A stretch of 64,000 nt of DNA, taken from contig CBDCCI010000002.1 in NCBI GenBank assembly GCA_965214705.1, forward strand, positions 2,432,001 to 2,496,000, in the 5' to 3' direction. A program made the translations under genes and the position numbers. Shown here piece after piece: positions 19,108 through 43,851 of the stretch; within the stretch, counting starts at the first letter, position 1; every line of letters begins with the position of its first letter. Source of the DNA: Alphaproteobacteria bacterium. GTDB taxonomy: Bacteria > Pseudomonadota > Alphaproteobacteria > UBA828. A model generated the notes under the pieces. The model saw only the letters and a program-made list of their open reading frames with translations, made no database searches and was not told the origin of the DNA.

Positions 19108-19304
19108 AGCATGCTCCTACGCAACGGATATTGCAGCACGACTCACACCGTCTCTCAAAAACGTGTCTCGAAATATTCAAAAACTTTCGTTCGAATGGCC
19201 GAGATGTTCATACCTTCGGCACTCCCTTACCCAAGCGACCTCATCACGGAAGTCTGACGAGAGAACCCTCGCTCAGAGACATCTTCCAACTTATACTCAA
19301 AGCG

Positions 19305-20554: not shown

Positions 20555-20763
20555 GTCATGCCTCCGTGCTTGAAGCCAGAGCAAACGCCCCGCGGACAGG
20601 CAGAATCGGCTTGGGCAGATAGAACCTGACCATGCTGGATTTTGAACGCATCATTCCTTGGCTCCTTCCCCAAAATCGAGCATCCTAGATTCAGACATTT
20701 GTGCATATGTTGGTCGCCACGCACGGAGCGAAAAGTGGCTGTCTAGTGTCAGATATGTAGATG

Positions 20764-21954: not shown

Positions 21955-21974
21955 TTCTGCTTTGGCCAGAGCCG

Positions 21975-23653: not shown

Positions 23654-23948
23654 CAGAGCCGAGGCTATCACCGTCAGGCGGTTCCCTCCGACCAAGGTAA
23701 TGTTTCAGACGGCATTACCATCGATCTTGGGGATTCCAAACAATTGCGGTCCCTTGAAAGCGATCGCGCTTTCTCGGGGCTAGTATGGAAAGAAAGAGGA
23801 GCCGGCACTGCACAACGAAGCGACACCGATCGGATAGCGCCGTCACGCCTTGAGACCGGCCACTCCGACGACCAGGCCGAAGCACCTTGTTTCGCGGCGT
23901 AACTATTTCATTGCGCATTTGCCGGCCCTCTAGCCAGTGCAAAGGCTT

Positions 23949-24902: not shown

Positions 24903-25322
24903 TCTGCCTTTTCCTTTTCAGCTAGGGTTGACACTTGAACTCCACACTTTTCTAGCGACGAGAATCCAAAAGGGTTTCATCGCAATACCGGCGCGTTCTT
25001 CATGACGCCGTTGTACCGTTCTCTGGTCAGTATTCCAGTGAACAAAGACGGAATTATCACTCTGCATAAACTAGAGATTAGCTGTAATTCGTTTAGGACA
25101 TACATCGAACGACCAGACAGTGAAGGTTGAACGCGCATGTCACATGACGTTTCTGAACGGCAGTGAGTGGAACGGTATGCGTCCTCGACTTTGGGCCTGA
25201 TCCTCTGGAGCGCGGTCAAGAGACCGAGACGGTCGGGTCCGCGGGAAAATCGAGCAGAAATGCTCGTAGACAAAGGTGCGCATCCGAAGATATTACCGAG
25301 AGATAACAACACACAGACCCTT

Positions 25323-26519
25323 CTAATAGTAATACTTGTTGACTCGCCCGGTCGCCGTCAAACCTGCCTCGTCGGGAAGCGGTCCGGCATCCACAAGCCG
25401 GGCGGTGACCGTAACGATTAGCTCGAGCTCGTCGGATCGCGTCGAGCTATGCCCGAAAAGTGCACCGACAAGTGGTAAGTCTTTGAGTAGCGGAACACCC
25501 GATTGCACATCGTTGGATGCACTGCGAAAGAGGCCAGCGATCACGATGGATTCACCGTCGCCCATCTCGACAGTGGTTTCCGCTCGCCGGACGTTGATGA
25601 CCGGAACATTGACTCCGGCAACCACCTGCACTGAGTTGTCCTGCGATGGTTCGGAAACTTCGGGCCGGACCGTTAGCTCGATCCTGTCCTCGTCGATGAT
25701 CGTCGGAACGAAATCGAGAAGAACTCCGTACTTCTTGTATTCGAAGACGATGACGCCGTCATCGAACCCGGTGGGCAGCGGATACTCGCCACCCGAAAAG
25801 AACGACGCGGTCTCTCCTGAGTTTGCGGTTACGTTCGGGCGGGCCAGCACGTTGGCCAAGCCTGCCTTTGCGAGCGCGTCCACAAAGGCGTTTAACCCGA
25901 CGTTGTCCCATGCCCGCTGAAGCATGAACGTGGGCGACAGCAGGCCATCCACGGAGGTCGATGGGATAGAGAGAAGGATGTTCCCCTCGTCGTTTGCACC
26001 CACATTCGGAGGCAAGCCCGGATGCGGCCGCCCTGCTAACCGCTCGGGCGCAGCAAGCGAGGTTCCGTCGGGCAGGCCGCGACCAATTCGGAATCCGAAG
26101 CCTAACGGATCATTTGAGTGCCCGAAGATCTCCCAGTTGAACCCGAAATCCTCAGCGACCGAACGCTGGACCTCGGCGATCTGGACCTCGAGGTTGACCT
26201 GCTGAGGCCCGACGATGCTCATATGGTTATCGACCAGGGCATCTTCCGGGAGCGAGGCGGTAGCGAAGCGTAGCGCACGCTCGGATGCGGCCGCAGATCC
26301 GACCTCGCCGCTCAGCGCGACACCGCGAGCGACGCGCTGCACGCGAACCCGATGCAGGTCGGGTTCTTTGGCGAGGAGTGTGCGCAGCGGCTGGAGGTCA
26401 GTCTCGACGCGCAGGTTGTTTTCCACGAGCATGTCTTCCGGGAGCGAGGCGGCCGCAAGGCGCACCACCCGATCGGCCCCGGCAACGGAGGCGATCTCAC
26501 CGCTCAGTGCCACTCCCCG
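25323..26519 (-). pseudogene. cpaC: C-terminal piece of the giant CpaC/RcpA secretin (last 1.5 repeats + secretin domain)
   Basis: QQVNLEVQIAEV, LARPNVTANSGETASFFSGGEYP, YGVLLDFVP, RRAETTVE, GVPLLKDLPLVGALF, ELIVTVT. Confidence 0.9.
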
Positions 26520-26727
26520 TGTTGTTTCCCGCTTTAGCCGGATAGCGGGTCGGCGATTTTTCTCACATTGATCGGTTCAGGGATTTCCCCGGATGGTGGG
26601 GGAAAGCGGGAGATCGGCGAGCATCGCGGCTTCGGCGGTTGGCGGTGCCGGGGCGGGACCGTAGTCTCGGGCTGACGAGGAACAAGAAAGAGGCCCGCGC
26701 GGGCTGACTCCCGCCGGGCCATGGCCG

Positions 26728-27363
26728 GTGCAGCTTCGCTACGAAACGGGGCTTACCGGCGAGGAATACGTTAGGGCCGAGGCGTGGCGCGACGCAAGGC
26801 TTGAGCGCTGCCCGAATCACCCGCACGGCGGATGTTCCGTGGGAAGCCACGGCACCTACGGGCGGAAGACCCCGCCCGGCGCGAGGGTTCCTCGCTGGTA
26901 TTGCCGCGAGAGCCATACGACGATCAGCCTTCTGGCCGACTGCCTGGCGGCGCGGCTGCCGGGCACGCTCGACGATCTGGAAGCGGTTGTCGTCGCGGCC
27001 GAGGGCGCGAAGAGCCAGGAGGAGGCGGCGAACGAGGTGCGCCGCCCCGAGGACGATGACGCCATCGAGCTTCCCGGCGCGCTGCGCTGGCTGCGCCGGC
27101 GGGTGGATCTCGTCCACGATGTCCTTTCCCGCGTTATCGGCCTGATCCCCGACAAGCTCGCGGGCTGCGCCGCCACCATGAGCGCGGTGCGCGACAAGCT
27201 CAAAAGCAACCGCGCATTGATGGCGCTGCGCGGCCTGGTCGCCGGGCAGCTGCAGGCGCTGCCCGCGCCGTTGGGCTTCCAACCCCACGGAACCGGCGCG
27301 AGGAGTCGCAAGCCGGGCCTCCAACACTCGATGGGGCCTGATCCGCCCCCGCCAGGCGCCTAG
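26728..27363 (+). CDS. Transposon accessory protein with Cys/His (Zn-finger-like) N-terminus
   Basis: CPNHPHGGC...HGTYGRKTP...RWYC...TISLLADCLA; first gene of the element. Confidence 0.7.
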   Translation: MQLRYETGLTGEEYVRAEAWRDARLERCPNHPHGGCSVGSHGTYGRKTPPGARVPRWYCRESHTTISLLADCLAARLPGTLDDLEAVVVAAEGAKSQEEAANEVRRPEDDDAIELPGALRWLRRRVDLVHDVLSRVIGLIPDKLAGCAATMSAVRDKLKSNRALMALRGLVAGQLQALPAPLGFQPHGTGARSRKPGLQHSMGPDPPPPGA

Positions 27364-27407
27364 CGTCATGGTCCCGGGCCCGAGGGGCCGCGAACGAGGA
27401 CCGTGAC

Positions 27408-28727
27408 ATGAAGGAATCGGATGACGACCTCCGCCAGGCGATCGCGCTCTTCCGATACGGCGTGATCGCCGATCTGGTGCATCTGCCGCTGGGCACGAAG
27501 GGCGTCGGCGACAGGCTTCGCGAGAAGGCCAGCCAGCCCTATGCCATCCCCGGAACCGACCGGACCCGGGTTGCCGCCGACACCATGCGGGAGTGGATCA
27601 GGCACTACCGCGATGGCGGCTTCGAGGCGCTCTACCCCAAGCCGCGCACCGACCGGGGCAAGCCCCGGCGGCTGCCGCCCGAGGTCGCCGAGCGCCTGGT
27701 CGCGCTGAAGGCCGACAACCCGGCCTGGCCGGTGCGCGCGATCATCCGCGCGGCCGCCGAGGAGGGCATCGATCACCCGCTCGCGCCCTCGACCGTGCAC
27801 CGGCTGCTGAGCCGCGAGGGGCTGTTCGACAGGAAGCCGCCGGACGGCGCCGACCGCCGCCGCTTCGCCTTCCGCGAGGCCGGCGAGCTGTGGATGAGCG
27901 ACGTCATGCACGGGCCCAAGGTCCGCTTCGGCCGGAGCCGGCGCAAGACCTACCTCATCGCATTCATCGACGACGCCACCCGGGTCGTGCCCTTCGCCGC
28001 CTTCGCCACGGCCGAGAACGTCCAGGCCTTCCTGCCCGTGTTCAAGAATGCGCTGATCCGCCGCGGGCTGCCGCAGCGCCTTTATGTCGACAACGGCGCC
28101 GCCTACCGCTCCCGCCATCTCGCCCTGATCTGCGCAAGACTGGGCGTCGTGCTGGTGCATGCGAGGCCGTATCAGCCAGCCGGAAAGGGCAAGATCGAAC
28201 GCTGGTTCAGAACGCTTCGCGCCGGCTGGCTCGCCCATCTCGATGCGCCGGTCCTGGACAGCCTCCAGACGCTCAACCGCAGCCTCTGGGCGTGGATCGA
28301 GGGCGAGTATCACGACACCCCGCATCGCGGCCTCGAGGGACGCACGCCGCTGGAGCAGTGGGCGTTGGCCTCGGTCGCGGTCCGCTACCCCGACGCCACG
28401 CTCGACCTCGACGACATCTTCCTCTTCGAGGCCAGGCGGCTGGTCCACAAGGACCGCACCGTCAGCCTCAACGGTCGCGTCTACGAGGTCGACGCCATCC
28501 TGGTCGGGGAAAGGGTCGTGCTGCGCTACGACCCGGAGGCACCGCCCGGCCGGCCGCTCGACGTGGTCTGCGACGGAAAGCCCGCCGGCCAGGCAACCCG
28601 CCTCGACGCCTATGCCAACACCGCGGTGAAGCGCGGCCACTACTCCAAGAAGATCGAACCCGACGACCCGGCGCCCGAGCCGCCGCCCTCGCCGCTCAAG
28701 ATGCGCAAGTTCAAGGAGGACGACTGA
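27408..28727 (+). CDS. DDE transposase (HTH + rve core + Mu-like C-terminal domain)
   Basis: LWMSDVMHGP, FIDDATR, LYVDNGAAY, GKGKIERWFRT, RLVHKDRTVSLNG. Confidence 0.92.
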   Translation: MKESDDDLRQAIALFRYGVIADLVHLPLGTKGVGDRLREKASQPYAIPGTDRTRVAADTMREWIRHYRDGGFEALYPKPRTDRGKPRRLPPEVAERLVALKADNPAWPVRAIIRAAAEEGIDHPLAPSTVHRLLSREGLFDRKPPDGADRRRFAFREAGELWMSDVMHGPKVRFGRSRRKTYLIAFIDDATRVVPFAAFATAENVQAFLPVFKNALIRRGLPQRLYVDNGAAYRSRHLALICARLGVVLVHARPYQPAGKGKIERWFRTLRAGWLAHLDAPVLDSLQTLNRSLWAWIEGEYHDTPHRGLEGRTPLEQWALASVAVRYPDATLDLDDIFLFEARRLVHKDRTVSLNGRVYEVDAILVGERVVLRYDPEAPPGRPLDVVCDGKPAGQATRLDAYANTAVKRGHYSKKIEPDDPAPEPPPSPLKMRKFKEDD

Positions 28728-29527
28728 TGTACCAGCGCCACTTCGCCCTGACCGGCATGCCCTTCGAGACCCCGGCACAGACCGACGAGCTGTTCGAATC
28801 CTCGGCCCGGCGCGAGGCCGAGGCCAGGCTCGGCCACCTCATCGAGCTCAAGGGCATCGGCCTGCTCACCGGCGAGGTCGGCGCCGGCAAGACCACCGTC
28901 TGCCGCCACCTCACCGACCAGCTCCACCCGGGGCTGTATCGCGTCCATTACGTCTCGCTCACCACCGGCAACGTGCTCGACACCTACAAGGCCATCGGAT
29001 GGGAGCTCGGGCTGACCGTCGAGCGATCCCGCTCCTCGGCCCATCACGCGATCAGGACCGAGATCTCCCGCCTCGCCAAGGAAGCCAGGCAGCTCCCCGT
29101 CCTCGTCGTCGACGAGGCCCACCATCTGCGCAACGACGTGTTGGAGGATCTCCGCCTGCTGACCAACTTCGCCATGGACTCCGAGAACCGCATGTGCCTC
29201 ATCCTGGTCGGCCTCACTGAGCTCAGGCGGCGGCTGTCCATGGCGGTGCATGAGTCCCTCAGCCAGCGCCTCGTCGTGCGGCACCACCTCACCGGCCTCG
29301 AACGCGACGAGGTCGACGCCTATCTGACCCACCGCCTCCGGCTCGCCGGATGCGAGCTGCCGCTGTTCGAGGAGGCCGCCGTCGAGGCCCTGTTCCAGGG
29401 CACCCGCGGCCTGCCGCGCCAGATCAACCGCATCGCCCATTACGCGCTGTCGGCCGCCGCCCTCGACAAGGCAAAGACCGTCAACGCCAACCACATCCAG
29501 ACCGCCCTCGACGAGCTTCAGCCATGA
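28727..29527 (+). CDS. ExeA/TnsC/MuB-like AAA+ ATPase
   Basis: MYQRHFALTGMPF start overlapping the transposase stop; Walker A GEVGAGKT, Walker B VVDEAH, GLPRQIN. Confidence 0.9.
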   Translation: MYQRHFALTGMPFETPAQTDELFESSARREAEARLGHLIELKGIGLLTGEVGAGKTTVCRHLTDQLHPGLYRVHYVSLTTGNVLDTYKAIGWELGLTVERSRSSAHHAIRTEISRLAKEARQLPVLVVDEAHHLRNDVLEDLRLLTNFAMDSENRMCLILVGLTELRRRLSMAVHESLSQRLVVRHHLTGLERDEVDAYLTHRLRLAGCELPLFEEAAVEALFQGTRGLPRQINRIAHYALSAAALDKAKTVNANHIQTALDELQP

Positions 29528-30591
29528 ACAGCGTCGCCACCGAGGGCATGGCGATGACCGGCTTCCCGACGCGGGCGCCGATCGAGCTGGAGGACCGGCC
29601 GCGCCAGCAGCAGTGGCTCATCGACGGGCTCTGGGGGCGCCAGGCCGTCGGCATCGTCGGCGGCGAGCCGAAGTGCGGCAAGTCCTTCCTCGCGCTCGAC
29701 ATCGCCGTCGCGGTCGCCGCCGGCGTCCCATGCCTGCGCCGCTTCGCCGCCGACCGGCCGGGCCCGGTCCTGCTGTTCGCCGCCGAGGACGCCGGGCACA
29801 TCGTGCGTGCCCGCCTCCAGGGTATCGCGAGCGCCGCCGGCGCCCGCTTCGACGCCCTCGACATCGCGGTCATCGACGTGCCCGCGCTGCGCCTCGATCA
29901 TCGCGCGGACCGTCAGCGCCTGGTGCAAACGGTGGAACGCGTCCGGCCCCGCCTCGTGGTCCTCGACCCCCTGGTCCGCCTGCACGGCATCGACGAGAAC
30001 ACCGTCGCCGAGGTCGCCCCCATCCTCGGCTTCCTGCGCGACGTCCAGCGCCGCTTCGAGACCGCCGTGCTGCTGGTCCACCACGCACGAAAGAGCGGCG
30101 CCGCCAGGCCGGGCCAGGCCCTGCGCGGAAGCAGCGAGCTGCACGCCTGGGGCGACTCCAATCTGTACCTGCGCCGGCGAGACAGGCAGATCCTCATGAC
30201 CGTCGAGCATCGCGCCGCCCCCGGCCTCAACGACATCGAAATCGAGCTCGCCGACGACGGCAAGGGGCCCGCGCTGCGCCTCCGCCAGGTCGAGACCGGC
30301 GATGCCGCGCCGCGGCCCGAAACCCCTGAACGGCGCATCCTCCAGGCCCTCGCCGAAGCCGACGCGCCGCTCTCCCAGCGCCAGATCCGGGAGCGCGCCG
30401 CAACCCGGCACAAGACCGTGGGCGCCATCCTGCGAAAGCTCGTCCGTGAGGGACGCATCCGGCACGACGCCGAGGGACATTACAGCCTCGTCACAGGCGA
30501 AACCGAGAACGCCGCGCCGGACGACGCCGCCAATGGCAGCCGCCATCCGGACGCCTCGCGGTTCCCGCCTCCCGGTTCCGCCCATCCCTAG
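29524..30591 (+). CDS. RecA-superfamily (AAA_25/RepA-like) ATPase with C-terminal wHTH
   Basis: WLIDGLW, GEPKCGKS, AAED, VVLDPL, LVHHARK, LRGSSELHAW; ATGA overlap with the previous gene. Confidence 0.85.
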   Translation: MNSVATEGMAMTGFPTRAPIELEDRPRQQQWLIDGLWGRQAVGIVGGEPKCGKSFLALDIAVAVAAGVPCLRRFAADRPGPVLLFAAEDAGHIVRARLQGIASAAGARFDALDIAVIDVPALRLDHRADRQRLVQTVERVRPRLVVLDPLVRLHGIDENTVAEVAPILGFLRDVQRRFETAVLLVHHARKSGAARPGQALRGSSELHAWGDSNLYLRRRDRQILMTVEHRAAPGLNDIEIELADDGKGPALRLRQVETGDAAPRPETPERRILQALAEADAPLSQRQIRERAATRHKTVGAILRKLVREGRIRHDAEGHYSLVTGETENAAPDDAANGSRHPDASRFPPPGSAHP

Positions 30592-30913
30592 GAGTTCGAG
30601 CGGGAACCGCCCGCCGGAACCGCCCCCCAGGCGCCTCTCGGGCTCAAAAAACGACAATGCGTCGAGCGATCGGCCCGTGGCCGAAAGCTCCGCTTACGGC
30701 CATGGATGCACTTCGTCGGATGGACGGCGGCGGGTCACCCGAAGGGCCGTAGCGAAGCGGAGGAGCCGCGCAGCGGCTTGACGCGCCGACGGCCGTCCGA
30801 CACCCCGGCACCCTGTCCCCCTTCCGGCAATGACCGATCAGTCCGGGAAATACGCGCGCCCGTCACCCGAAATAACCCGGGAAATCCGTCGTCAATCAAT
30901 CCGGGAAACAACA

Positions 30914-31789
30914 CCCCGCGCAACCCGCTGCACCTGCACCCCGTCCAGCCCCGGCTCGCCCGCCATCAGCGAGCGCAGCGGGCCGAGGTCCAGCCCCACT
31001 TCCAGGTTGTTCTCCACCAGCATGCCTTCAGGGAGCGAGGCAGCAGCGAGGCGCATTGCCTGGTCGGCCGCGCCCTGGGAGGCGACGTTGCCGCTCAGGG
31101 CCACCCCGCGCGCGAGACGCTTCACGCGCACGGCTTGGAGGATCGGGTCGCCGGCCAGCAGAACGCGCAGTTCCTCGACGTTCGGTAGAATTCGCAGATT
31201 GCTCTCGACCAGTACGTCTTCCGGGAGCGAAGCCGCTGCAAGCCGAAGCGCGCGATCAGCTGCCGCGGCCGATCCGACCTCGCCGCTGAGAGCTATGCCT
31301 CGAGCGACACGGCGTACCCGAACGCTGCGCAATTCAGGTTCGCTGACGATAAGGGCACGCAATGGCGCAAGGTCCAGCGCGACTTCCAGGTTACTCTGAA
31401 CCAGCATGCCTTCCGGAAGAGAGACAGCCGCGAGCTGGAGTGCCCGTTCGGCCGCCGTCGGAGAGGCCACTTCGCCGGATAGGACGACACCGCGCTCGAG
31501 CCGCTGGATGTGCACATCCCTGAGATCGGGATCGCTGGCCAACAACGCTCCCAGCCTGTCGACATTCGGCGTCACACGCAGGTTGTTCTCGACCGAGATG
31601 TCTTCCGGGAGCGAGGCGGCCGCAAGGCGCACCGCCCGCTCGGCTTCAGCCTCTGAGCTGACGTCGCCGCTCAGAGCCACGCCTCGGGCGACCCGCTGCA
31701 CACGGATCTCAGCCAATGCCGGCTCGCCGGCAAGGAGCGAACGCAACAGTTCGAGGTCCAGCCCCACCTCCAGATTGTCCTCGACCACC
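30914..31789 (-). pseudogene. cpaC: Middle piece of the giant secretin (~4.5 BON-like repeats)
   Basis: Same 64-aa repeat (RVARGVALSG..S...A.RA..LAAASLPE...VENNL); bounded by two mobile elements. Confidence 0.9.
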
Positions 31790-31879
31790 GTAAGCGGTAT
31801 CGGGCCCCCATACTTCCAGCGGATCTGATTTCGGGGCTGACTCTCCGCCTTGACCACGAGCCACACAGGAGAGATCGCG

Positions 31880-32305
31880 ATGACAGATTCGATTTTGGCA
31901 TCTGGCGACGGTGTCGCTGTTGCTTCGGTTGAGATCCCAGCTTCTGAGGGAGCCGCCCCGGCTCCGTCTGAGCCGGCCCCCATGCGACGCTGGCCGGACG
32001 ATGAGAAGGCGCGGATTGTCTCGGAGAGCTTTGAGCCGGGCTCTTCGGTTGCGGCGGTCGCGCGCCGCCATGGCGTCAGCGATACGACCCTGACCAAGTG
32101 GCGGCGGCGCGCGCGGGAGGGAACTCTTCCGGGCGCTCGGATTGGTGGCTCTGCACCGCCATTTGTTCCCGTGGTGGTTGATAGCGTGACGTCCGAGCGG
32201 ACGGTGGCGATCGAGGCGCTAGGCGTGGTCGTTCGCCTTCCGGTGGAGAGCGCGGTCGATCGGATTGTTGCGGTGGCCTCGGGCCTGGGCCGGGCGTCGT
32301 CATGA
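31880..32305 (+). CDS. tnpA: IS66 TnpA (HTH)
   Basis: RRWPDDEKARIVSESFEPGSSVAAVARRHGV. Confidence 0.88.
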   Translation: MTDSILASGDGVAVASVEIPASEGAAPAPSEPAPMRRWPDDEKARIVSESFEPGSSVAAVARRHGVSDTTLTKWRRRAREGTLPGARIGGSAPPFVPVVVDSVTSERTVAIEALGVVVRLPVESAVDRIVAVASGLGRASS

Positions 32306-32652
32306 TCGCGGCCCCCTCGCTTCGCATCGTGTTGGCGACGCGGCCGGTTGATTTTCGTCGCGGCCACGACGCGCTTGCGGCGACGGCGGCGGGGGAGCTG
32401 GACCTCGATATCTATTCCGGGGTGATCGTGATCTTCCGCTCGCGCCGCGGCGACAGGCTCAAGCTCCTTGCGTGGGACGGCAGCGGTCTGGTGATGACCT
32501 ACAAGCGTCTGGAGCAGGGCCGCTTCGCCTGGCCTCGGATCGAGGATGGTGTGATGCGCCTTACGAAGGGCCAGTTCGAGGCCCTCTTCGAGGGTCTGGA
32601 CTGGCGCCGGGTGAAGGCCCGCCCGGTTCGCCGCCCGCTGGCGGCGGAGTGA
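32302..32652 (+). CDS. tnpB: IS66 accessory protein TnpB
   Basis: PVDFRRGHDAL...KLLAWDGSGL...KRLEQGRFAWP. Confidence 0.92.
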   Translation: MIAAPSLRIVLATRPVDFRRGHDALAATAAGELDLDIYSGVIVIFRSRRGDRLKLLAWDGSGLVMTYKRLEQGRFAWPRIEDGVMRLTKGQFEALFEGLDWRRVKARPVRRPLAAE

Positions 32653-32745
32653 GGCGGCACGCAGGCGGGGCCGCAGATTTCGGTCGCGGTCCCGCCTGCA
32701 CTTTTCCCTGGTCATGCATTGGCGAATCGGATTAAGGGGTGGCCC

Positions 32746-34461
32746 ATGCCGAAGGTCACGCCCTCACCCCTCAGCAGCGCCGGTTCGCCGTCGCCTGCGG
32801 TGGTTTCGGCGGCGCTGGCGGCCCTGCATGCGGAGCTTGACGACGAGCGCGCGGCGCGCCGGGCGACGGAAGCAGCCCTATGCGAAGCGGAGCAGGCACG
32901 CGGCGCGGCGGAGGCGGCGAGGCAGACGGCGGAAGCGCGGGCGGCACGGCTGGAGGCCGAGAACGCGCAGAGCGCGGAGCAGATCAGCCGGCTTGAGCAT
33001 CTCAACAAGGAGCTCAGGAAGGCGCTGTTCGGTCCGCGCTCCGAGAAGCTCGGCGAGGACGAGCGCCAGCTTACGTTCGAGGAGTTTTGGGCGGCGATCG
33101 CTGAAGCCGGCGGTCGGCCCGAGGCAGATGACCAGGAGCAGGACGAGGGGGCTGGCGGCAAGCGCCGGCGGCGCTCTTCCCGGGGGTCGCGCAGCGGGGT
33201 GCGCTTCGGGCCCCAGGTCGACCGGCGCGAGGAGGTGATCGAGCCGGACACGATCATGTGCCCCTGCGGCTGCGGCGAGATGACGAAGATCGGCGAGGAC
33301 CGCAGCGAGCGGCTGGACTATGAGCCGGCGAAGTTCACCGTCATCGAGACCGTGCGCCCCCGCTACGCCTGCAACAAGTGCAAGGGGGGCGGGGTGGTGC
33401 AGTCGCCGGCGCCGGCCGCTCTGGTCGAGGGCGGCCTTCCCACCGAGGCTCTTCTGGCGCAGGTGCTGATCGCGAAGTACGGCGATCATTGCCCGCTCTA
33501 TCGCCAGTCGCAGATCTACGAGCGCTCGGGGATCGAGGTTCACCGTGCGACGCTGGCGACGTGGGTGGGCCAGGCGTCGTTTCACCTGCGCCCCGTGGTC
33601 GCTTGCCTGGAGGATGAGCTGAAGAAGTCGGATCACCTGGGTCTGGACGAGACCACGATCCGCGTTCTCGACCCGGGCCGGGGCAAGACGAAGACGGGCT
33701 ACATGTGGACCCTTGTGCGTGACGAGCGCCACTGGAGCGGCACGGACCCGCCGGGCGTCGTCTATCGCTATGCGCCCGGCCGCGGCGGCAAGTATGGCGC
33801 CGAGCTTATGGAGGGCTTTTCGGGGACGGTGCAGCTCGACGGCTACTCGGGCCACAACATCCTGGCGCGGCCGGACCGGGCGGAAGGCCCTGTGACGCGG
33901 GCCCTCTGTTGGGCGCATGTAAGACGGAAGCTGAAAGAGGTATACGACTCGAGCGCATCGCCGATCGCGCTGGCCGGTCTGAATCGGATCGCGAAGCTCT
34001 ATGCGATCGAGAAGAAGATCCGGGGCAAGCCGCCGGCGGAGCGCCGCGCGATCCGTTGGGAGGAGTCGGCGCCGATCGTGAACACCTTCGGTGTCTGGCT
34101 CGACGAGCAGCGCTCGCGCGTCTCACCGCGCTCGCGTCTCGGCGAGAAGCTGACCTATATCGCCAACCAGTGGGACGGGCTGCTGGAGTTCCTGCACGAC
34201 GGTCGTGTCGAGATCGACTCGAACCTGGTGGAAAACCGAATCCGGCCGCTGAAGCTCACCGCCAAGAACGCGCTCTTCGCCGGCAACGACGAGGGTGCGC
34301 AAGCCTGGGCCCGCATCGCCTCGCTGATCGAGACCTGCAAGATGAACGGCGTCGAGCCCTACGCCTGGATGCGGAGCACGCTCGAGAAGATCGCCAAGGG
34401 CCACCCGCAGTCGGGCATCCAGGAGCTTCTGCCGTGGAACTTCCAGCCCGAGGCAAAATGA
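32746..34461 (+). CDS. tnpC: IS66 transposase TnpC
   Basis: Coiled coil, FGPRSEK, CPCGC, PLYRQ, LDETT, CWAHVRRK, IDSNLVENRIR, ELLPWN. Confidence 0.93.
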   Translation: MPKVTPSPLSSAGSPSPAVVSAALAALHAELDDERAARRATEAALCEAEQARGAAEAARQTAEARAARLEAENAQSAEQISRLEHLNKELRKALFGPRSEKLGEDERQLTFEEFWAAIAEAGGRPEADDQEQDEGAGGKRRRRSSRGSRSGVRFGPQVDRREEVIEPDTIMCPCGCGEMTKIGEDRSERLDYEPAKFTVIETVRPRYACNKCKGGGVVQSPAPAALVEGGLPTEALLAQVLIAKYGDHCPLYRQSQIYERSGIEVHRATLATWVGQASFHLRPVVACLEDELKKSDHLGLDETTIRVLDPGRGKTKTGYMWTLVRDERHWSGTDPPGVVYRYAPGRGGKYGAELMEGFSGTVQLDGYSGHNILARPDRAEGPVTRALCWAHVRRKLKEVYDSSASPIALAGLNRIAKLYAIEKKIRGKPPAERRAIRWEESAPIVNTFGVWLDEQRSRVSPRSRLGEKLTYIANQWDGLLEFLHDGRVEIDSNLVENRIRPLKLTAKNALFAGNDEGAQAWARIASLIETCKMNGVEPYAWMRSTLEKIAKGHPQSGIQELLPWNFQPEAK

Positions 34462-34541
34462 CTCGCGCGCTCACGGCGCTCCTCAAGAAATCCCCGTCGT
34501 AGTCAAGCCAGATTCCGGTATGGGGTCTGCGTACCGCTTAC

Positions 34542-36872
34542 GCCAGAAGTGCGCGCAAGGGCCCGACGTCCAGGGCCACACGCAGGTTGTTCTCCACGAG
34601 CATGCCTTCCGGAAGAGACGCGGCCGCCAAGCGCACCGCCCGCTCGGCCGTGGAAACGGAGGCGACCTCACCGCTTAGCGCCACCCCCCGCGCAACCCGC
34701 TGCACCTGCACCCCGTCCAGCCCCGGCTCATCGGCCATGAGAGAGCGCAGCGGCCCAAGGTCCAGCCCAACCTCAAGGTTGTCCTCGACCAGCATCTCCT
34801 CGGGGATGGAGGCAGCGGCGAGGCCGACAGCGCGCTCCGCCGCCTCTGCCGATCCGACCGCTCCGGTAAGTGCCACGCCGCGTGCCAGCCGCTGAACGCG
34901 CACATCCCGAAGGTCGGGGTCCATGGCCAGAAGTGCGCGCAAGGGACCGATGTCCAGAGCCACCCGCAGGTTGTTCTCGACCGAGATGTTTTCCGGGAGC
35001 GAGGCGGCCGCAAGCCGCACCGCCCGGTCGGCCGTGGCGACGGAGGCGACCTCGCCACTCAGGGCCACGCCCCGTGCAACCCGCTGCACCTGCACCCCGT
35101 CCAGCCCCGGCTCTCCCGCCATGAGCGAGCGTAGCGGCCCGAGGTCCAGCCCAACCTCAAGGTTGTCCTCGACCAGCATCCCCTCGGGGATGGAGGCAGC
35201 GGCGAGGCCGACAGCGCGCTCCGCCGCCTCTGCAAACCCGACCGCTCCGGTAAGCGCCACGCCGCGTGCCAGCCGCTGAACGCGCACATCCCGCAGGTCG
35301 GGGTCCATGGCCAGAAGTGCGCGCAAGGGACCGACGTCCAGGGCCACCCGCAGGTTATTCTCGACCGGCATGTCCTCCGGAAGAGAGGCGGCCGTTAGGC
35401 GGACCGCCCGATCGGCGGTGGCGACGGACGCGACCTCGCCACTCAGCGCCACCCCCCGCGCAACCCGCTGCACCTGCACCCCGTCCAGCCCCGGCTCATC
35501 GGCCATGAGAGAGCGCAGCGGCCCGAGGTCCAGCCCCACCTCAAGGTTGTCCTCGACCAGCATGCCCTCCGGAATGGAGGCAACGGCAAGGCCGACTGCC
35601 CGATCGGCCGCCGCCGGAGAGCCCACCTCGCCACTGAGCGCGACCCCACGTGCCAGCCGCTGAACGCGCACATCCCGAAGGTCGGGGTCCATGGCCAGAA
35701 GTGCACGCAAGGGACCGACGTCCAGGGCCACACGCAGGTTGTTCTGGACCGGCATGCCTTCCGGAAGAGACGCGGCCGCAAGACGCACCGCCCGATCGAC
35801 AGTGGCGACGGAGGCGACCTCGCCGCTCAGGGCCACACCCCGCGCAACACGCTGCACCTGAACCCCACCCAGCCCCGCCTCGCCCGCCATGAGCGCGCGC
35901 AGCGGCCCGAGGTCCAGCCCCACCTCAAGGTTGTCCTCCACCAACATCCCTTCCGGGATAGAAGCCACCGCGAGCCCAACCGCACGCTCGGCCGCCGCCG
36001 AAGAGCCCACCTCGCCACTGAGAGCGATCCCGCGCGCCAGTCGCTGCACGCGCACATCCCGCAGGTCGGGGTCCACGGCCAGAAGTGCGCGCAAGGAACC
36101 GACGTCCAGGGCCACACGCAGGTTGTTCTCCACGAGCATGCCTTCCGGAAGAGACGCGGCCGCAAGGCGCACCGCGCGCTCGGCCGTGGCGACGGAGGCG
36201 ACCTCGCCGCTCAGGGCCACACCCCGCGCAACCCGCTGTACCTGTACTCCGTCCAACCCTGGCTCACCCGCCATGAGCGAGCGCAGCGGCTCGAGGTCCA
36301 GCCCCACCTCAAGGTTGTCCTCCACCAGCATCCCCTCGGGGATGGAGGCAACGGCAAGACCGACCGCACGCTCGGCCGCCGCCGGAGAGCCCACCTCGCC
36401 ACTCAGAGCGACCCCGCGCGCCAGCCGCTGCACCTGCACGCCCTGCAGATCCGGATCGGCGGCCAGAAGTGCGCGTAGCGGTGCGACATCGAGAGCCACC
36501 CGCAGACTGTTCTCGACCGGCATGCCTTCCGGAAGAGAGGCGGCCGCAAGGCGCACCGCCCGATCGGCGGTGTCGACGGACGCGACCTCGCCGCTCAGAG
36601 CCACCCCCCGCGCAACCCGCTGCACCTGCACCCCGTCCAGCCCCGGCTCTCCGGCAAGGAGCGAACGCAGCGGCCCGAGGTCCAACCCAACCTCAAGGTT
36701 GTTCTCCACCAGCATCCCCTCGGGGATGGAGGCAACGGCAAGGCCGACCGCACGCTCGGCCGCCGCCGGAGAGCCCACCTCGCCACCGAGAGCTACCCCG
36801 CGCGCCAGCCGCTGAACGCGCACGTCGCGCAGATCCGGATCTGCGGCCAGCAGTGCACGCAAGGGCCCGACG
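34542..36872 (-). repeat. 192-bp (64-aa) tandem repeat, 12 full units alternating A/B (384-bp higher-order period)
   Basis: Type A (DPDLRDVRVQRLARG...SIPE...LEVGLD) alternates with type B (EPGLDGVQVQRVARG...SLPE...LRVALD). Confidence 0.95.
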
Positions 36873-39238
36873 TCGATCACCACGAGAACATCCCGCTCCA
36901 GAACGGAGCCATCCTCGCCAAGCACGGAAATCGACGTGCTGCCCGCCGTCTGACCTAGGACGTACAGCACAGTGGGAGAGAGAAGCTGCACGTCTGCGAT
37001 CTCGGGGGAAGCAGCCGCCACTGCCTTTGCGGGACTGTCGAGATGCCACCGACGACTCTTTCCCAGCACGACAATCCACTCGTCATGGGGGAGCGCATCA
37101 CCTGGAGGATACTCAGGCGGCTGGGACTCCAAATTGGGTAGATCTTCCGCGGACGCTAGCGATAGCGAGGGAGCGGCGGAATAGGGCGCGGCACCGCCGG
37201 TCCAGGCATGTGCTGTCGGCCGTTCGTTCGGACTCATCCCCGACGGCGTGGAAGCAAAGGAAGCGAAAGGCGTATCGGAAGTCCGAACTCGATCAGGGGC
37301 GGGTTCTGCGAGGGCCACACTCTCGTACCACCCCGCCTGGCGCTCTCCTTCACCGTTGAGCCGTCCAGGCCCATCCTCAGGCAGTAACGCGGCGGTCAGG
37401 AGAGCTGCGTCCGATTCGGAGGTTGGATCGGACGCGAACGCAGTCGCGCTCGACGTGGACGAGGCGCGGTCGGGTGAAAATGCCGGCTGCAGGAACGCTC
37501 CTTCGGACCATGAAACGAGACCGAGGTTGGCAGCCGAGAGAGTCATGTTCCTGGGCCACGCGGCTCCTTGTTCCCAAACGTGGCCGCGCGACGAAGGTGT
37601 AGCTCCGGAATAGAATGCGTCTACCAAGGATGCCGCGCCGGCTCTGCGCGCGAATTCGGACGCCGTCGCGTTCGTGCCTGACTGCAGCATCGTGAGGTCG
37701 AGCAAGAAGATGGACTGCAGGAATGTCGCATGTGACAAGGAGACGTGACCGAAATCGGCAGCACCGAAGATCAGTCGTTGGGACAACGCGGCTCCCGGCT
37801 CCCACCAGCCGTTAGGCGGCGCGGATGAGCGGCTGGAAGTGGACGGGACGGGACGGGATGGCGCATGTCCTTCGGTCATTGACTGGGACGCCGCAGGCGT
37901 CGCTCTTCGCGTCAACCTGATGGGATTGGACGGAAGAGCAGGATGATCGAATGATGCATCCGACAAGGTGTCGACGTTGAAGTCGGCAGCCGCCACGGTC
38001 GCTCTCTCCAACCATGCAGAATCCGGCTCCTGCATGCCGCTCATCAATAAGGGTGCAACACCGGTAGAGGACGGGTTGGGAACGGGGACCGCGTCGGATT
38101 CGGTCGTTGGTGCCGGCGCCGACGCTGTCGCGGCGGTCGGCGTTGTGGCGTCTGCGGTCGAAAGGAACAGGGGAGTCGGAGACCCCTCGGGCGGCGCGGT
38201 GAAGTCGGGGTCGGTGGCGCCGGAGACGGCCATGATCGCGGACCGAGCGGCATAAGGATTCGGAACGCCCTGCTGCGATGCAAACGAGGCTTTTGGCGAA
38301 GGCGGGTTCGGGGCGCCCGCCTCCCCGCCCCCGGATGTGGATTGGGGCCGAGGCGCTCCGGCGTAATCGGGAACGGCGAATACTGCGTCCGCCGCGGGAA
38401 GAACGTCCCAGCCAGCCTCGCCGGTGAGGCGGAGCGTCAGCCCCAACGTACCTCCGAGTGCAATACCTGTTGAGGGCCCGAGCCCTTTGCTCGCGATCAA
38501 TGGCGGCGGGTCGAGGGGAGGCCACTCCAGCAGGAGTCTGGTATCGACCCGGCGCGGCGGCATTGACTGTCGGCGGGCAGTGTCCACAAGGTTCTGCAAT
38601 GCGCGTGAGTCGTCTTCCTCCCAGTAGGACGCGTCATATCGTTCGTAGATACCTGCTGCCGCGTCGATCCGACCGGAAGCGATCAGCATACGAACGAAGT
38701 TGGCTGCGATCCGGGGATGTGCCGAGGGATGGCGGAGCGCTTCGGTGTAGTGGGTTTCGGCGGTCTCGTAGTCGGCTTCGAGTACGGCGGCGACGGCGAG
38801 GCCGTTTTCGATCCACATGACTGACGAGGGATCTTGTACGAGCGCTCGCGCATCCAGCAGGTGTTGACGCGCCGCTTGGGTATCGCCGAGAGCGAGCGCC
38901 GTCCGCCCGGCACCGAGGAGCGCCTCTCCCCTGGTAGCGGGTGAGGCCTGCGCCAGGTCCGCAGCCTGGAGAAACTGTCGGCGCGCCGCGTTGAAGTCAT
39001 GGTCGTGCAGGAAGATGTAGCCCAGTCCCAGGACAGGTTCAGGCGCATCGTCGAATCGCTCTGCAAGCGAAAGGTAGAGCCTCCGGGCAACGGCCGGCTG
39101 TCCCGCCGCGAGCGCGGCGGAAGCGACGGACAGATGGTCTCGAAGCAGCTCCCTGGCGCCGGGCCTGTCGGCCGGCTCGGAGACGCCGGAGCAGGCGGCG
39201 ACAAAAATAAGCGTGGCAAGCGCGGCGGTTGCGGGCAT
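34542..39238 (-). pseudogene. cpaC: N-terminal piece of the giant secretin: lipoprotein signal, TadD-like TPR, long linker, CpaC pilus-N domain, 12+ BON-like repeats
   Basis: Lipobox FVAAC; TPR motifs (PVLGLG, ALLGAG, ENGLAV); LGKSRRWHLDSPAKAVAAASPEIADV...GSTSISV; start codon uncertain. Confidence 0.85.
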
Positions 39239-39362
39239 GCGTCTTGCGGAATTCAAGCGCAATACCGAACTTTTGAATCGGGACGCCAAACTTCGATGAT
39301 GAGCAGTTCGGACGTTCAAAATCTTCGCCTCCCGTGCCCGCGGTGAACCGGCGGCCGGAAAC

Positions 39363-40451
39363 TCAGGCGCAATCCACATGCCGAAACGAATTCGCGGAGA
39401 ATCGTGATCTCCAGGCATCGAACAGGGCATCGCGAGAACCGCTGAAGCGCGCCTGAATGGTCACGTACTCCTGCTGTGTTGTCGTGTTCGCGGCGGATTG
39501 AACGGAATATCCGAGCCTCTTCAGGCTGGTCATCCGCCGCTGCGCATTCGCTCTGCTCCTGTACACACCGAGCGAGACCGCGTTTCTCAGTTCACCTCCG
39601 AGGATGACCGCGACGTCGCGGATTCCCCGGCTCTTGAGTTCGCGCAATGTCCGAAGGGCACTCTTGCGGCTGTCCAAGGGCGGGATGTAGACCCGGTGGC
39701 TCTCGATCGTCTCACGCGGCTCCGCGGCTATCGCGAGAATCTCCGCCCCTCGCGAGCGCAGCCATTGCTTGGCGTCCTCAACGTCGTCGCGAGTCTCGAA
39801 CTCGCCCACCGACACACAGGCGGCATCGGCAACGGCCAAGGCGGCAGTCGGGCTCTGACGCTCTTCGCGTGCGAACCGGTCTGTAGCCCGTGCACCGGCC
39901 TCGCCCATCTCGGGCGCCTCTGAAACGACCGGTTCCGAGGTGCGCGGAATGGATGAGCGGACCGGCTCGCTGCGCTCTCGGACTATGGTCGTGCCGAAGC
40001 CGAGTTCCCGGGCGCGGGCGTAGGCACCGCGCGCCAGCTTCACGTAGATGTCGCCCAGGTTCTGGTATCCGATGGCGTCGGTCTGGCGTTCGAGTGCACC
40101 GAGGAGGACCCCGCGCGCGTCCTCGAGCCGGCCCTCTTGAACGTAGACGACGGCCAAATTGTTGTAGGCCTCGAACAAGTCGGGAAAGTCCCGCACGAGT
40201 GAGCGGAAGGTGTCGATCGCCTCGTCCCGATCTCCCTCGTGCAGGCGTAAGATCCCGTGCAGAAGCCGTGCATGGGAACTGCCGGGCTCTCGCTCAAGCA
40301 GCGGATCAAGGGTGAGACGTGCTTCCCGATAGCGTTCTTCGTCTGCGAGCGAGATCGCGCGGTCGAGCGTGTCCTCGGACAGCGCGGCGTTGGACGAGAG
40401 AGTCGCCGCTGACATCGCCAGCGCCAGCAGGACCGCGCCGATCTTCGTCAT
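39363..40451 (-). CDS. Secreted TPR + SPOR-domain protein
   Basis: Signal peptide; TPR (EAYNNLAVVY, YQNLGDIY); C-terminal NAVSLGVYRSRANAQRR SPOR-like region. Confidence 0.8.
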   Translation of the reverse strand: MTKIGAVLLALAMSAATLSSNAALSEDTLDRAISLADEERYREARLTLDPLLEREPGSSHARLLHGILRLHEGDRDEAIDTFRSLVRDFPDLFEAYNNLAVVYVQEGRLEDARGVLLGALERQTDAIGYQNLGDIYVKLARGAYARARELGFGTTIVRERSEPVRSSIPRTSEPVVSEAPEMGEAGARATDRFAREERQSPTAALAVADAACVSVGEFETRDDVEDAKQWLRSRGAEILAIAAEPRETIESHRVYIPPLDSRKSALRTLRELKSRGIRDVAVILGGELRNAVSLGVYRSRANAQRRMTSLKRLGYSVQSAANTTTQQEYVTIQARFSGSRDALFDAWRSRFSANSFRHVDCA

Positions 40452-41495: not shown

Positions 41496-42737
41496 TCACG
41501 GTTTCCCCCTGTGGGTCGGCGGCAGCGCCGGCGGGCCGCGCGTCGAGCGGGGCTCATGGCGGCGGCGGATTTCGCGGACGAGGCGCATGACGCCGCCGCA
41601 GTGGGGGCAGGCCACGGGCGCGGTGCCGATCTCGGGCTCTTCGTCGGGCTCGGCCCGAGCGCCGTCCACGCTTCCCTCGGGGGCGGCGCAGCCGAGGGCG
41701 CCGAGAGCCTGGCGTGCTCTCTCCAGCGTGCTGGCGCGGCAGCCGTTGGCGAGGATGCCGAAGTAGCGAATGCGGTGCATGCCGTCCGGCAGGACGTGCC
41801 TCAGGAAGCGGCGGATGAACTCGTCGGCGCTCACGGTGGCGATGCCGTAGCGCGGCTTTCTCTGCCCCGGCGCCTTGGGCTTTCGGTGGCGGAAGGAGAC
41901 CGTCTCGCCGTCGAAGGAGACGATGCGGCTGTCGGAGATGGCGATCCTGTGCGTGTAGTGCGAGAGGTACCGGAAGACCTGCTCAGGCCCGCGGAAGGGC
42001 CGCTTGGCGTAGACCACCCAGTCCCTGGCCCGGGCGGCGGCAAGCGTGGCGTGGAACTCGCCGGGATTGGCGAGGTGGGCGAGGGTGCCGTGGAACTCCA
42101 GGTCCCCCCGGCCGTGGGCGCGGGCGAGCTCCTCGAGGAAGAGGCGGCGGAACAGGCTGCCGAGGACCTTGACGGGGGCGAGGAAGGTGGTGCTCCCCGT
42201 CTTCCACTCGCCACTGTCTACGTCGAAGCCCGCGTTGGGCACGACCACGTGCAGGTGCGGGTGGAAGCGGAGCTTCTGATCCCAGGTATGGAGGACCGCG
42301 GTGCCGCCGATGCGCATGCCGCCGTGGCGGGGATCGGCGGCGATGGTGCGCAGGGTCTCGGCGACGGCCCGGAAGAGGATGTCGAACACCACCCTGCGGT
42401 TGCAGAAGGCAATGGCGGCAACCTCCTTGGGCAGGGTGAAGACCACATGGAAGTAGGGCACCGGCAGGATGTCCCCGGCGCGCTCCTCGCTCCAGAGGTT
42501 GGCGGCGAGACCCTGGCAGGTGGGGCAGTGGCGGTTGCGGCAGGAGTTGAAGAGCGGATGCTCGCGCCCGCAGCCCTCGCAGGCGTACATGTGGCCGCCG
42601 AGCACGGCGGTGCGGCACGCCTCGATGGCGCCCATGACCTTGAGCCGGGCGGCGTCGATGCGCCCTTTGTGGCGCTCACGGAAAGCGGCGCCGGCGCGGC
42701 GGAAGATCTCCGCCACGCCCGCGCGTTCGGCCTCCAC
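41496..42737 (-). CDS. IS91-family HUH transposase (copy 2)
   Basis: Two amino-acid differences from 268-1509. Confidence 0.92.
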   Translation of the reverse strand: MEAERAGVAEIFRRAGAAFRERHKGRIDAARLKVMGAIEACRTAVLGGHMYACEGCGREHPLFNSCRNRHCPTCQGLAANLWSEERAGDILPVPYFHVVFTLPKEVAAIAFCNRRVVFDILFRAVAETLRTIAADPRHGGMRIGGTAVLHTWDQKLRFHPHLHVVVPNAGFDVDSGEWKTGSTTFLAPVKVLGSLFRRLFLEELARAHGRGDLEFHGTLAHLANPGEFHATLAAARARDWVVYAKRPFRGPEQVFRYLSHYTHRIAISDSRIVSFDGETVSFRHRKPKAPGQRKPRYGIATVSADEFIRRFLRHVLPDGMHRIRYFGILANGCRASTLERARQALGALGCAAPEGSVDGARAEPDEEPEIGTAPVACPHCGGVMRLVREIRRRHEPRSTRGPPALPPTHRGKP

Positions 42738-42743
42738 GCGCCG

Positions 42744-43622
42744 TCAGTTGCGCAACGCTGCGAAGCCTGAGATCGGGTGGTCGAGGCCCTCGAACATCTT
42801 GCCGGTGACGCGGGCGTAGTGACGGGTCGTGTTCGCGCTTCGATGGCCGAGCATGTCCCGGATCACCTCGATATCGCCGCCGCGCTCGAGGAGATGGGTC
42901 GCCGCCGAATGGCGCAGGCAATGGAAGGTGTAGCTGCGGTCGAGCTCGGCAATGTCGCGCGCCCTCCTGAAGGCGGCCTGCAAGGTCTCCGTTGCGATGG
43001 GCCTGTCGAGCGAGACGCCGTAGAAGAGCCAGCTCGTCGGACGCGGCCAGATGTTCCTGTAGTAGACGCGCAAGTAGTGGATGACGATGTCCGGCAACGG
43101 TGCCATTCTCTCGGTGCCGCCTTTGCCGGAGGGGATGTGCAGCAGCTTCTTCTCCGACAGGATGTCGCCGACCTTGATGGCCAAGGTCTCGGAGATGCGG
43201 AGCCCGCCGCCATAGCCGGTGACAATGGCAGCACGGTGGCGGAGGTCGGGTGTCGCAAGGATGAGGTGCTCGACCTCCTGCTCCGACATGTAGCGCGGCA
43301 GCTTGCCGGGCTTCTTGCGGGAGCGCAGGCCGGCGACATGGTCAGGCCAGCCGAGTGTGTCGATGTAGAGGAAGTTCAGCGCGGCGAAGGAGACGTTGGT
43401 CGTGCCCGGACTGAGCCCCTTGTCGATCCGCCCCAGGTACCACTGGCGCACCTGCTCGGCGTCGAGCTCGTCCGGCGAGGCGTCGTAGTACCTGGCCAGG
43501 TTCTTGATCTCGCAGATGTAGGCCTTGGACGTGCTCGCGGCCAGATTGGCGATGCGGAGCTGCTCCTCCATGCGCTGGCGAAGAGGGGTGACGGTGTTCG
43601 TGTCGCACGCGGTCCCGGTCAT
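42744..43622 (-). CDS. Tyrosine recombinase (copy 2)
   Basis: Same protein as 1516-2394. Confidence 0.92.
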   Translation of the reverse strand: MTGTACDTNTVTPLRQRMEEQLRIANLAASTSKAYICEIKNLARYYDASPDELDAEQVRQWYLGRIDKGLSPGTTNVSFAALNFLYIDTLGWPDHVAGLRSRKKPGKLPRYMSEQEVEHLILATPDLRHRAAIVTGYGGGLRISETLAIKVGDILSEKKLLHIPSGKGGTERMAPLPDIVIHYLRVYYRNIWPRPTSWLFYGVSLDRPIATETLQAAFRRARDIAELDRSYTFHCLRHSAATHLLERGGDIEVIRDMLGHRSANTTRHYARVTGKMFEGLDHPISGFAALRN

Positions 43623-43851
43623 TATCGATCTCCCTGGATCGCGACGGCGCGCCGCCGGACCGATCCGGCGACGGTCCGTCGCAGGGGTCGATACTAACCA
43701 CTGGTGATCGGGAGGCTGCTGGGGATCCGCCACCCGACGGGCGGAGCGCCACTGACGCAACCGGGAAGCGAACGCACAGAACAAACGGCACCCGCGACGC
43801 CTCGGAAATGAATGAACTCTACGCCGCTAACTCCGCGTAGCGGCTTCGTTC

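Follow-up and report, generated by a model that had tools for sequence, protein, structure and literature searches.

A giant Tad-type secretin gene with an array of 19 BON units, interrupted by two mobile elements in an alphaproteobacterial genome

The window analysed here is a stretch of 64,000 nucleotides (nt) from an Alphaproteobacteria bacterium of the UBA828 lineage (GenBank assembly GCA_965214705.1, contig CBDCCI010000002.1, positions 2,432,001 to 2,496,000), in which the predicted secretin gene of a Tad/Flp-type pilus locus is divided into three pieces by two inserted elements. The open reading frames (ORFs) concerned lie on the minus strand and comprise 34538..39430 (1630 amino acids, aa), the C-terminal 292 aa of 30892..32715, and 25323..26513. 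Joined by reference, the minus-strand segments 39430..34542, 31789..30914 and 26514..25323 form a single frame of 2318 codons followed by a stop. Met65 at 39238, likely the start of the gene, stands before a signal peptide and the lipobox VAAC (LIFVAAC, aa 74-80 of the open frame), and from this residue the frame encodes 2254 aa, in agreement with the start at 39238 and the length of more than 2200 aa given in an original prediction made from the sequence alone. The protein consists of a lipoprotein signal, a PilF/TadD-like tetratricopeptide repeat (TPR) module, a low-complexity linker, a pilus-N domain, a BON array and, at the C-terminal end, the secretin barrel. A Pfam search of the three pieces recovers the pilus-N, BON and Secretin families that the prediction expected (Table 1), and together with the surrounding tad locus and the open joined frame this bears out its central claim, namely a Tad secretin whose exceptional tandem array of BON domains had been obscured by two insertions. 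Judged by sequence, the gene is the outer-membrane secretin of a Tad/Flp-type pilus locus, of the RcpA/CpaC type and in an extreme architectural variant.

Between the pilus-N domain and the barrel, Tandem Repeats Finder resolves positions 34542-36874 into 12.2 copies of a 192-nt period (67% matches) and 6.1 copies of a 384-nt period (87%). The Pfam BON family (PF04972) is matched at E 3.4e-54 in piece 1, 1.8e-23 in piece 2 and 2e-7 in piece 3. A hidden Markov model (HMM) of the unit, built from the 12 pilus-N-proximal units of the window, marks 12 stretches in the first piece, five in the second (four full) and two in the third (one full). Counted as units of 64 aa, the array therefore holds 12, one truncated, four, one split by the transposon and one more, a tally of 19 with 18 full, which is the predicted series of 12, one partly deleted and six. 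Two classes, A and B, alternate along the 12 pilus-N-proximal units: A units are 78-96% identical to one another and B units 84-90%, against 61-71% between A and B. Identities fall to 56-77% for the four full units of piece 2 and for the last unit.

Searched by sequence against PDB chains, four units return nothing significant (best OsmY, E 0.32), and a fold search was therefore required. The AlphaFold2 model of units 3-6, for which 44 four-unit blocks taken from the window and from seven loci were aligned, has a mean predicted local distance difference test (pLDDT) of 87.3 and repeats the order helix-strand-strand-helix-strand four times, with connections of ~4 residues. All nine Foldseek matches at E <= 1e-3 are periplasmic domains of the type III secretion proteins YscD, CdsD and PrgH or belong to OsmY, DolP and BonA, the top one being 4alz (E 9.3e-8). 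Superposed singly, the last unit gives Z 9.4 with OsmY (root-mean-square deviation 1.8 Å over 65 residues), Z 9.1 with DolP (2.0 Å) and Z 7.4 with BonA. The model of piece 3 is poor overall (pLDDT 59.6), and only its last unit, at 80-88 and leading directly into the first barrel strand, and the barrel strands were used. A co-fold of four copies of a two-unit block scored 0.00 in both runs, without controls, and counts neither for nor against self-association. In these models the repeated unit has the alpha-beta-beta-alpha-beta BON fold that the original prediction expected, and it is the module of which ordinary Tad secretins have a single copy.

OsmY, DolP/YraP and BonA share this fold, its tandem arrangement and a periplasmic location with the units, but each has two domains where the arrays have dozens, and all are lipoproteins or soluble proteins outside channels, with lipid-binding or chaperone roles of their own. 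The SctD proteins (YscD, PrgH, CdsD) likewise have tandem BON-like, ring-building domains, three per protein; they are, however, inner-membrane ring proteins of another machine and are only 13-21% identical to the units in sequence. The periplasmic necks of secretins have been described as containing zero to four small domains, and the three or four N domains of other secretins stack as rings.

The barrel matches P. aeruginosa RcpA (PDB 8odn) at E 1.5e-34 and superposes on it with Z 12.4. The last unit and barrel together match the Tad-type secretin of Acidithiobacillus caldus (8jvb) at E 2.3e-24 and superpose on 8jvb/9wfd with Z 12.5 (model 37-375 on chain 97-429), the best solved match over the BON-position domain and the barrel. 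That protein, named a 'type II secretion system protein', is 502 aa long with only one such domain and lacks a TPR fusion. For these solved secretins together, VIA gives Z 12.4-12.6. With the Tad secretins RcpA (8odn) and Caulobacter CpaC the window protein shares the barrel, the VirB9-like pilus-N domain, the domain at the BON/N3 position and a locus containing CpaB/RcpC, CpaF/TadA, TadB and TadC. The number of BON/N3-position domains, by contrast, is 0 in RcpA, 1 in CpaC and 19 in the window protein (1-47 in its family), and the giant secretins, with a fused lipoprotein TPR module and a linker of ~480 aa, reach 2250-3700 aa, compared with roughly 420-560 aa for RcpA and CpaC. Passages of PMC10499894 describe a VirB9-like N-domain in RcpA and an added N3 domain under the barrel in other RcpA homologues; in a passage of an older analysis (PMC3459982) the same region of CpaC is termed a BON domain.

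At the N-terminal end, the TadD/PilF/PilW pilotins offer the closest likeness: a lipobox followed by a TPR region of ~220 aa that extends along nearly the full PilW model (positions 2-214 of the 234 of TIGR02521). The giant secretin differs in carrying this module fused in cis through the long linker, as a pilotin-like head. TadD is presented in passages of PMC10499894 as a PilF-like TPR lipoprotein pilotin that binds the C-terminal tail of RcpA.

Both interrupting elements can be delimited. The TniA/TniB-type transposon has the ends TGTTGTTTCCCG... and ...CGGGAAACAACA, and its target duplication CCCCG lies at 26515-26519 and 30914-30918. The splice from 30914 to 26514 removes the transposon with one copy of the duplication and restores the frame exactly, as had been predicted, and a relative, G005:C2, is contiguous at this very site. 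No TniQ/TnsD-type target selector is matched by Pfam within the transposon, whose third gene encodes an AAA_25 (RepA/RecA-like) domain with a winged helix in the place expected of a TniQ-type selector; the element is accordingly assigned no further than the Tn5053/Tn7-like (TniA-TniB) transposons. A 211-aa ORF of the element (26728-27363) has no family match, and two further near-identical copies of the transposon lie at C3:2624120-2628520 and C1:2616642-2621036.

The insertion sequence (IS) of the IS66 family has 25-nt terminal inverted repeats starting with GTAAGCG. Its 8-bp flanks in the secretin gene are unequal (CGACCACC / GCCAGAAG), so that this copy has no target-site duplication, whereas 29 of the genome's 33 full-length copies have perfect 8-bp duplications; part of the array must therefore have been lost with the element. 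The junction brings together an A-type unit start and an A-type unit end and is in frame by chance. At least 44 aa of the array are lost at this site, or 44 + 64k aa. A deletion of 708 nt beside the element, proposed on colinearity with the 22-unit copy of G005:C2, was dropped, as the pilus-N-proximal units have no positional orthology. Reciprocal flanks are absent at the other three duplication-less copies, and the genome thus yielded no partner for an inversion or translocation; the four copies without duplications suggest IS-mediated rearrangements. Most of the 33 full-length copies are 100% identical, and partial and 93%-identical copies occur besides. The genome, at 7.9 Mb and 98.5% completeness, is the largest among 21 of the same genus, and both inserted elements belong to recently active families in this IS-laden genome.

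Table 1. Coordinates of the secretin gene, the inserted elements and the neighbouring genes in the window.
Feature	Position	Strand	Details
Secretin gene, piece 1	34542..39238 (open to 39430)	-	lipobox, TPR, linker, pilus-N, 12 BON units and first 9 aa of the 13th
TPR module	38573..39223 (aa 70-286)	-	Pfam TPR_19/TPR_12 E 1.7e-5 (aa 103-267); NCBIfam PilW TIGR02521 E 2.1e-5
Low-complexity linker	aa ~300-780 of piece 1 frame	-	~480 aa
Pilus-N (VirB9-like) domain PF13629	36881..37072 (aa 787-850)	-	T2SS-T3SS_pil_N E 3.3e-14
Twelve 64-aa BON units, A/B alternation	34568..36871	-	period 192 nt, higher-order 384 nt
Secretin gene, piece 2	30914..31789	-	last 11 aa of truncated unit, 4 full BON units, first 25 aa of transposon-split unit
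Secretin gene, piece 3	25323..26514	-	remainder of split unit, last BON unit, secretin barrel, stop codon
Secretin domain PF00263	25389-25877	-	Pfam E 1.1e-40
IS66-family element	31790..34541	+	tnpA 31850-32305, tnpB 32302-32652, DDE transposase 32719-34461
TniA/TniB-type transposon, 4394 bp	26520..30913	+	TGT...ACA ends, 5-bp duplication
Transposon genes	27408-28727; ~28724-29527; 29350-30591		rve/Mu-C transposase; AAA_22 TniB-like ATPase; AAA_25 + winged-helix (Pfam)
TPR + SPOR (peptidoglycan-binding) protein gene, upstream	39363..40451	-	adjoins secretin in 7/8 relatives' loci
orf213 (213 aa)	40448-41089	-	no Pfam/NCBIfam match
IS91-type Y2 transposase + tyrosine recombinase (third insertion)	41496..43784	-	between orf213 and orf423
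orf423 (423 aa)	43819-45090	-	no Pfam/NCBIfam match
CpaB/RcpC, 315 aa	45130-46077	-	TIGR03177 2e-49
DAHL histidine kinase, 885 aa	46613-49270	-	between tadC and cpaB
TadC	49319-50386	-	
TadB	50337-51380	-	
CpaF/TadA ATPase	51290-52705	-	
CpaE-like protein, 910 aa	52708-55440	-	only weak CpaE/Ssd-like stretch
TadE-like protein	57289-58107	-	

The frame of piece 1 terminates at a stop just inside the end of the IS66 element, so that the barrel is missing from it, and piece 3 is without a signal peptide; the secretin gene is therefore a pseudogene in this genome. It is also the single match to the pilus-N family (PF13629) in the whole 7.9 Mb. Two near-identical, though not sequence-identical, secretin frames of 709 aa (C1:1999301-2001427 and C1:3732268-3734394) show no match to the pilus-N domain or the BON unit with the queries used and are probably a duplicated type II secretion-type secretin, so that no spare Tad-type secretin was found. 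The third insertion, of IS91 type, occupies a gap that measures ~80 nt between orf213 and orf423 in relatives and probably has a polar effect on the part of the operon that includes the secretin. The Tad pilus has probably been lost from this organism.

Misassembly of the repeats, which would make the array length or the insertions artefacts, is extremely unlikely. The genome stands in 3 contigs with 33 full-length copies of the 2.75-kb IS resolved, the units differ from one another by 4-39%, and both elements have proper ends, the transposon with its clean duplication at a position where the relative is uninterrupted. Twenty public runs contain part of the stretch, and the four that were examined yield only short contigs, interrupted at the IS, at the transposon and at the array. 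In two runs, difference-free contigs extend over all three unique flanks at a single-copy depth of ~45. The same short-read contigs break at every repeat and so cannot confirm the array length or the junctions: the joints reach only 20-26 letters on a side, which is under the reliable length, and no contig with an uninterrupted allele appears in the four runs.

Of the loci of 8 relatives, 7 keep the block of the TPR-SPOR gene, orf213 and orf423 next to the secretin gene, and 6 have CpaB. The 213- and 423-aa proteins are candidate partners of the array. A gene for a 171-aa protein (46082-46597), with no Pfam or NCBIfam match, is likewise kept near the secretin, and the DAHL kinase is present in the tad loci of at least three relatives, at 74-80% identity over the covered part. 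In 7 of 8 relatives' loci the gene immediately downstream of the secretin encodes a paralog of the 910-aa protein (~36% identity); this paralog is not found in the window. Downstream of the secretin, the region 16000-25000 has a G+C content of 52-57% against ~67%, includes a di-haem cytochrome c peroxidase and may be acquired DNA; a UPF0236 (transposase-like) ORF lies at 22044-23600.

Relatives place the array in a wider series. With aa 780-1630 of piece 1 as the query, word-index searches retrieved 69 proteins with lengths of 896-2853 aa and 10 with lengths of 2854-5000 aa. The unit HMM counts at least 9 units in 46 of these 79 homologues, and the array is therefore not a product of chance. 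A lipobox-like motif (loose pattern) is present in 64 of the 79, the other 15 being truncated calls or protein-internal starts. The TPR head, pilus-N domain and barrel are all matched in 58, whose unit numbers are 1, 3, 4, 9, 11, 15, 16, 18-21, 24-31, 36, 37, 39, 42 and 47, so that the survey of repeat number the prediction had called for finds it highly variable (1-47 units). The 47-unit protein (3852 aa) ends 52 aa into the barrel; the largest complete homologue, with 3712 aa and 42 units, represents a cluster of 19 member sequences. The closest relative with an uninterrupted array and barrel has 31 units, at identities of 93.5% in the N-terminal and 97.6% in the C-terminal part, and of 20 genomes from the same genus, 7 contain the gene. 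Stop-free frames of 2344, 2800, 2828, 2876 and 3411 aa carry 21, 27, 27, 29 and 37 units, and a form of 955 aa carries 3. G005, the nearest species, has two copies: L031 (G005:C2), with 22 units and a frame change in the linker at aa ~400, and L037 (G005:C3), with 12 and 30 units in overlapping frames. Forms with 3-4 units have a linker of 79-146 aa, those with at least 9 units one of 396-484 aa; over the 58 proteins with all three modules linker length correlates with unit number (Spearman 0.73), the relatives being non-independent.

Matching contigs are labelled as Rhodospirillales, Alphaproteobacteria, Thalassobaculaceae and Defluviicoccus sp. metagenome-assembled genomes, with one labelled Bryobacterales; Azospirillum and Alteromonas hold distant relatives with a single unit. 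An exhaustive search of 1.84 billion representatives with a 4-unit profile gives 183 proteins at E <= 1e-3 and 14 at 1e-30, which marks the giant clade as rare. Among the 15 weaker matches examined, eight (P0111, P0116, P0121, P0127, P0128, P0132, P0163 and P0173; 850-1294 aa; E 1e-5 to 1e-13) have the same order of pilus-N, BON and secretin with 2-8 unit-like stretches, although they lack the TPR head and have far fewer units. Multi-BON Tad secretins thus occur in other lineages on a smaller scale, and the statement in the original prediction that CpaC and RcpA usually have at most one BON domain does not hold in general. Two further proteins of the 15, P0141 and P0143 (1120-1248 aa), end in an OmpA domain preceded by many BON or BON-like stretches and are other long BON arrays of the envelope.

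The two ends of the array have different histories. Aligned with G005:C2, units v1-v4 and z1 (the last unit) pair one to one with units 17-20 and 22 (79-91% identity, against at most 77% for any other), whereas the 12 pilus-N-proximal units have no positional orthologs there; G005:C2 has a four-unit higher-order repeat of its own. The strict A/B alternation that had been predicted is present in the 12 pilus-N-proximal units and in the nearest relative. More distant relatives have different classes, in which A and B are not recognisable, so that the A/B pair is what was amplified in this lineage and does not stand for a conserved structural pairing. The predicted recency of the amplification is only partly correct: A units are highly alike, but their mean synonymous divergence (dS) of ~0.6 resembles that between species, and the five barrel-proximal units are old and positionally orthologous.

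Neutral or selfish expansion of a flexible region by slippage or unequal recombination, with only a few barrel-proximal units functional, would account for the homogenisation and the lineage-specific number of the pilus-N-proximal units, for the 9, 11 and 15 units of close relatives that are equally similar to the window, and for the forms with 1-4 units in the same type of locus. This explanation is nevertheless improbable. The ratio of nonsynonymous to synonymous divergence (dN/dS) is 0.11 across the pilus-N-proximal units (dS 0.64) and 0.20 across the barrel-proximal (distal) units, and paralogous A-A and B-B pairs give 0.13-0.15 at dS 0.4-0.6. The units are thus, by these sequence comparisons, under purifying selection. 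In distant relatives, most units of the 27-37-unit arrays are only 66-67% identical at the DNA level and the frames are still open; stop-free frames reach 3712 aa in many independent assemblies. The spacing of units is 64 aa in nearly all steps (occasionally 63, 80 or 85), and unit length is held at 63-64 aa. The arrays appear on this evidence to be old, selected and constrained in the length of each unit, with a stable barrel-proximal and a dynamic pilus-N-proximal part.

In an alternative arrangement, which takes up the conduit or ruler suggested in the original prediction, every unit would form a 12-14-mer ring and 19-47 rings would be stacked as one straight tube leading the pilus through an envelope of unusual width or layering, with the number of units setting the span of the envelope. 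The unit next to the barrel corresponds in position to an ordered domain in the 14-chain A. caldus structure (8jvb/9wfd), the nearest folds include the ring-building domains of YscD, PrgH and CdsD, and the strictly kept unit length and the ~4-residue inter-unit linkers are also consistent with a stack. At an estimated ~3 nm per unit, however, 19-47 units extend over 57-140 nm. Passages of a study of the Caulobacter Tad machine, in which CpaC has one N3 and one VirB9-like domain, give a periplasm of 29-33 nm (bioRxiv 10.1101/2025.11.05.686773). By the same estimate per unit, 5-6 units would fit this space. The same conserved locus also occurs with 1, 3, 4, 9 and up to 42 units (47 at most), which suits a distance-matched tube poorly, and CpaB has an ordinary length of 315 aa. 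The excess over the width of the periplasm and the range of unit numbers together make a straight, width-matched conduit unlikely. That all 20-47 units of the intact relatives form 12-14-mer rings, as a self-built tube of 60-140 nm, has a lower probability still. If true, the tube would be several-fold longer than the normal width of the periplasm and far beyond any known secretin neck; it would imply an envelope of a kind so far unrecognised, whether with a very wide or multilayered periplasm, with deep invaginations or with the tube housed inside the envelope, and the easily changed repeat number would be a genetic length dial for a trans-envelope conduit.

The best explanation of the whole, to which we assign a probability of roughly 0.6, is a pseudogenised giant Tad secretin that in intact relatives would combine barrel-proximal rings with an outer scaffold or anchor. 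In those relatives, 12-14 protomers would form the channel. The barrel-proximal units would take the place of the single N3/BON ring of CpaC-type secretins, with a few rings stacked under the barrel, while the pilus-N-proximal units would expand, contract and homogenise independently in each lineage. The outer units would form a semi-rigid rod or skirt that, beyond ~10 units, could not stand upright in a periplasm of ~30 nm, and for this reason would most likely run along or pack around envelope layers, as a multivalent scaffold or anchor that braces the channel. The lipidated TPR head on its long disordered tether may, by analogy with the pilotins, pilot or hold the barrel in cis. Three observations serve as precedents for a scaffold or anchor: CpaD, in passages of the Caulobacter study (bioRxiv 10.1101/2025.11.05.686773), is a spoke-like, peptidoglycan-linked belt around CpaC; dual-BON proteins have membrane- or envelope-binding roles, as their PDB titles state; and BON arrays are found joined to OmpA domains.

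Several points weigh against this explanation. In the model of units 3-6, the predicted template modelling score of 0.56 leaves the inter-unit orientation uncertain, and the figure of ~3 nm per unit is our own estimate and not computed. We infer the oligomer geometry of the array, assume that the lipid anchor is sorted to the outer membrane, and treat as putative any binding of the units to phospholipid or to peptidoglycan, the latter being the basis of the multivalent anchor that the original prediction offered as its second idea. The TPR head scores 24.2 bits with TIGR02521, below the family cut-off of 154, and is therefore named pilotin-like only. Unit counts on short-read metagenome contigs may be collapsed, and the frame changes in both G005 copies may be long-read indel errors or may mark decay there too. 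No Flp pilin (PF04964) is matched at E <= 0.01 in the 98.5%-complete genome, the family being short (46 positions) and divergent. Within the giants, linker length and unit number give rho -0.27 (n=28); the linker as a matching tether was set aside, its length not scaling inside the giant class, and it is kept as a consistency argument only.

In conclusion, the giant poly-BON architecture is a new, extreme variant of a well-known secretin. The literature searched (titles and text passages) yielded no account of long BON arrays in secretins or of the TPR-head fusion. For this genome the outcome is an ordinary one, the gene being a casualty of an IS bloom. Beyond it stands a conserved, selected family of 2300-3700-aa secretins in which one neck domain is repeated 20-40 times and a pilotin-like lipoprotein head is fused to the channel protein itself. 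We infer the function of the array in intact relatives by analogy, and the structural puzzle is how hundreds of BON domains per channel would fit into a periplasm of ~30 nm. The natural length series of 1, 3, 4 and 9 to 42 units in one conserved locus offers a handle on the role of the N3/BON position, on the packing of BON domains, and on how envelope machines tolerate or exploit length.

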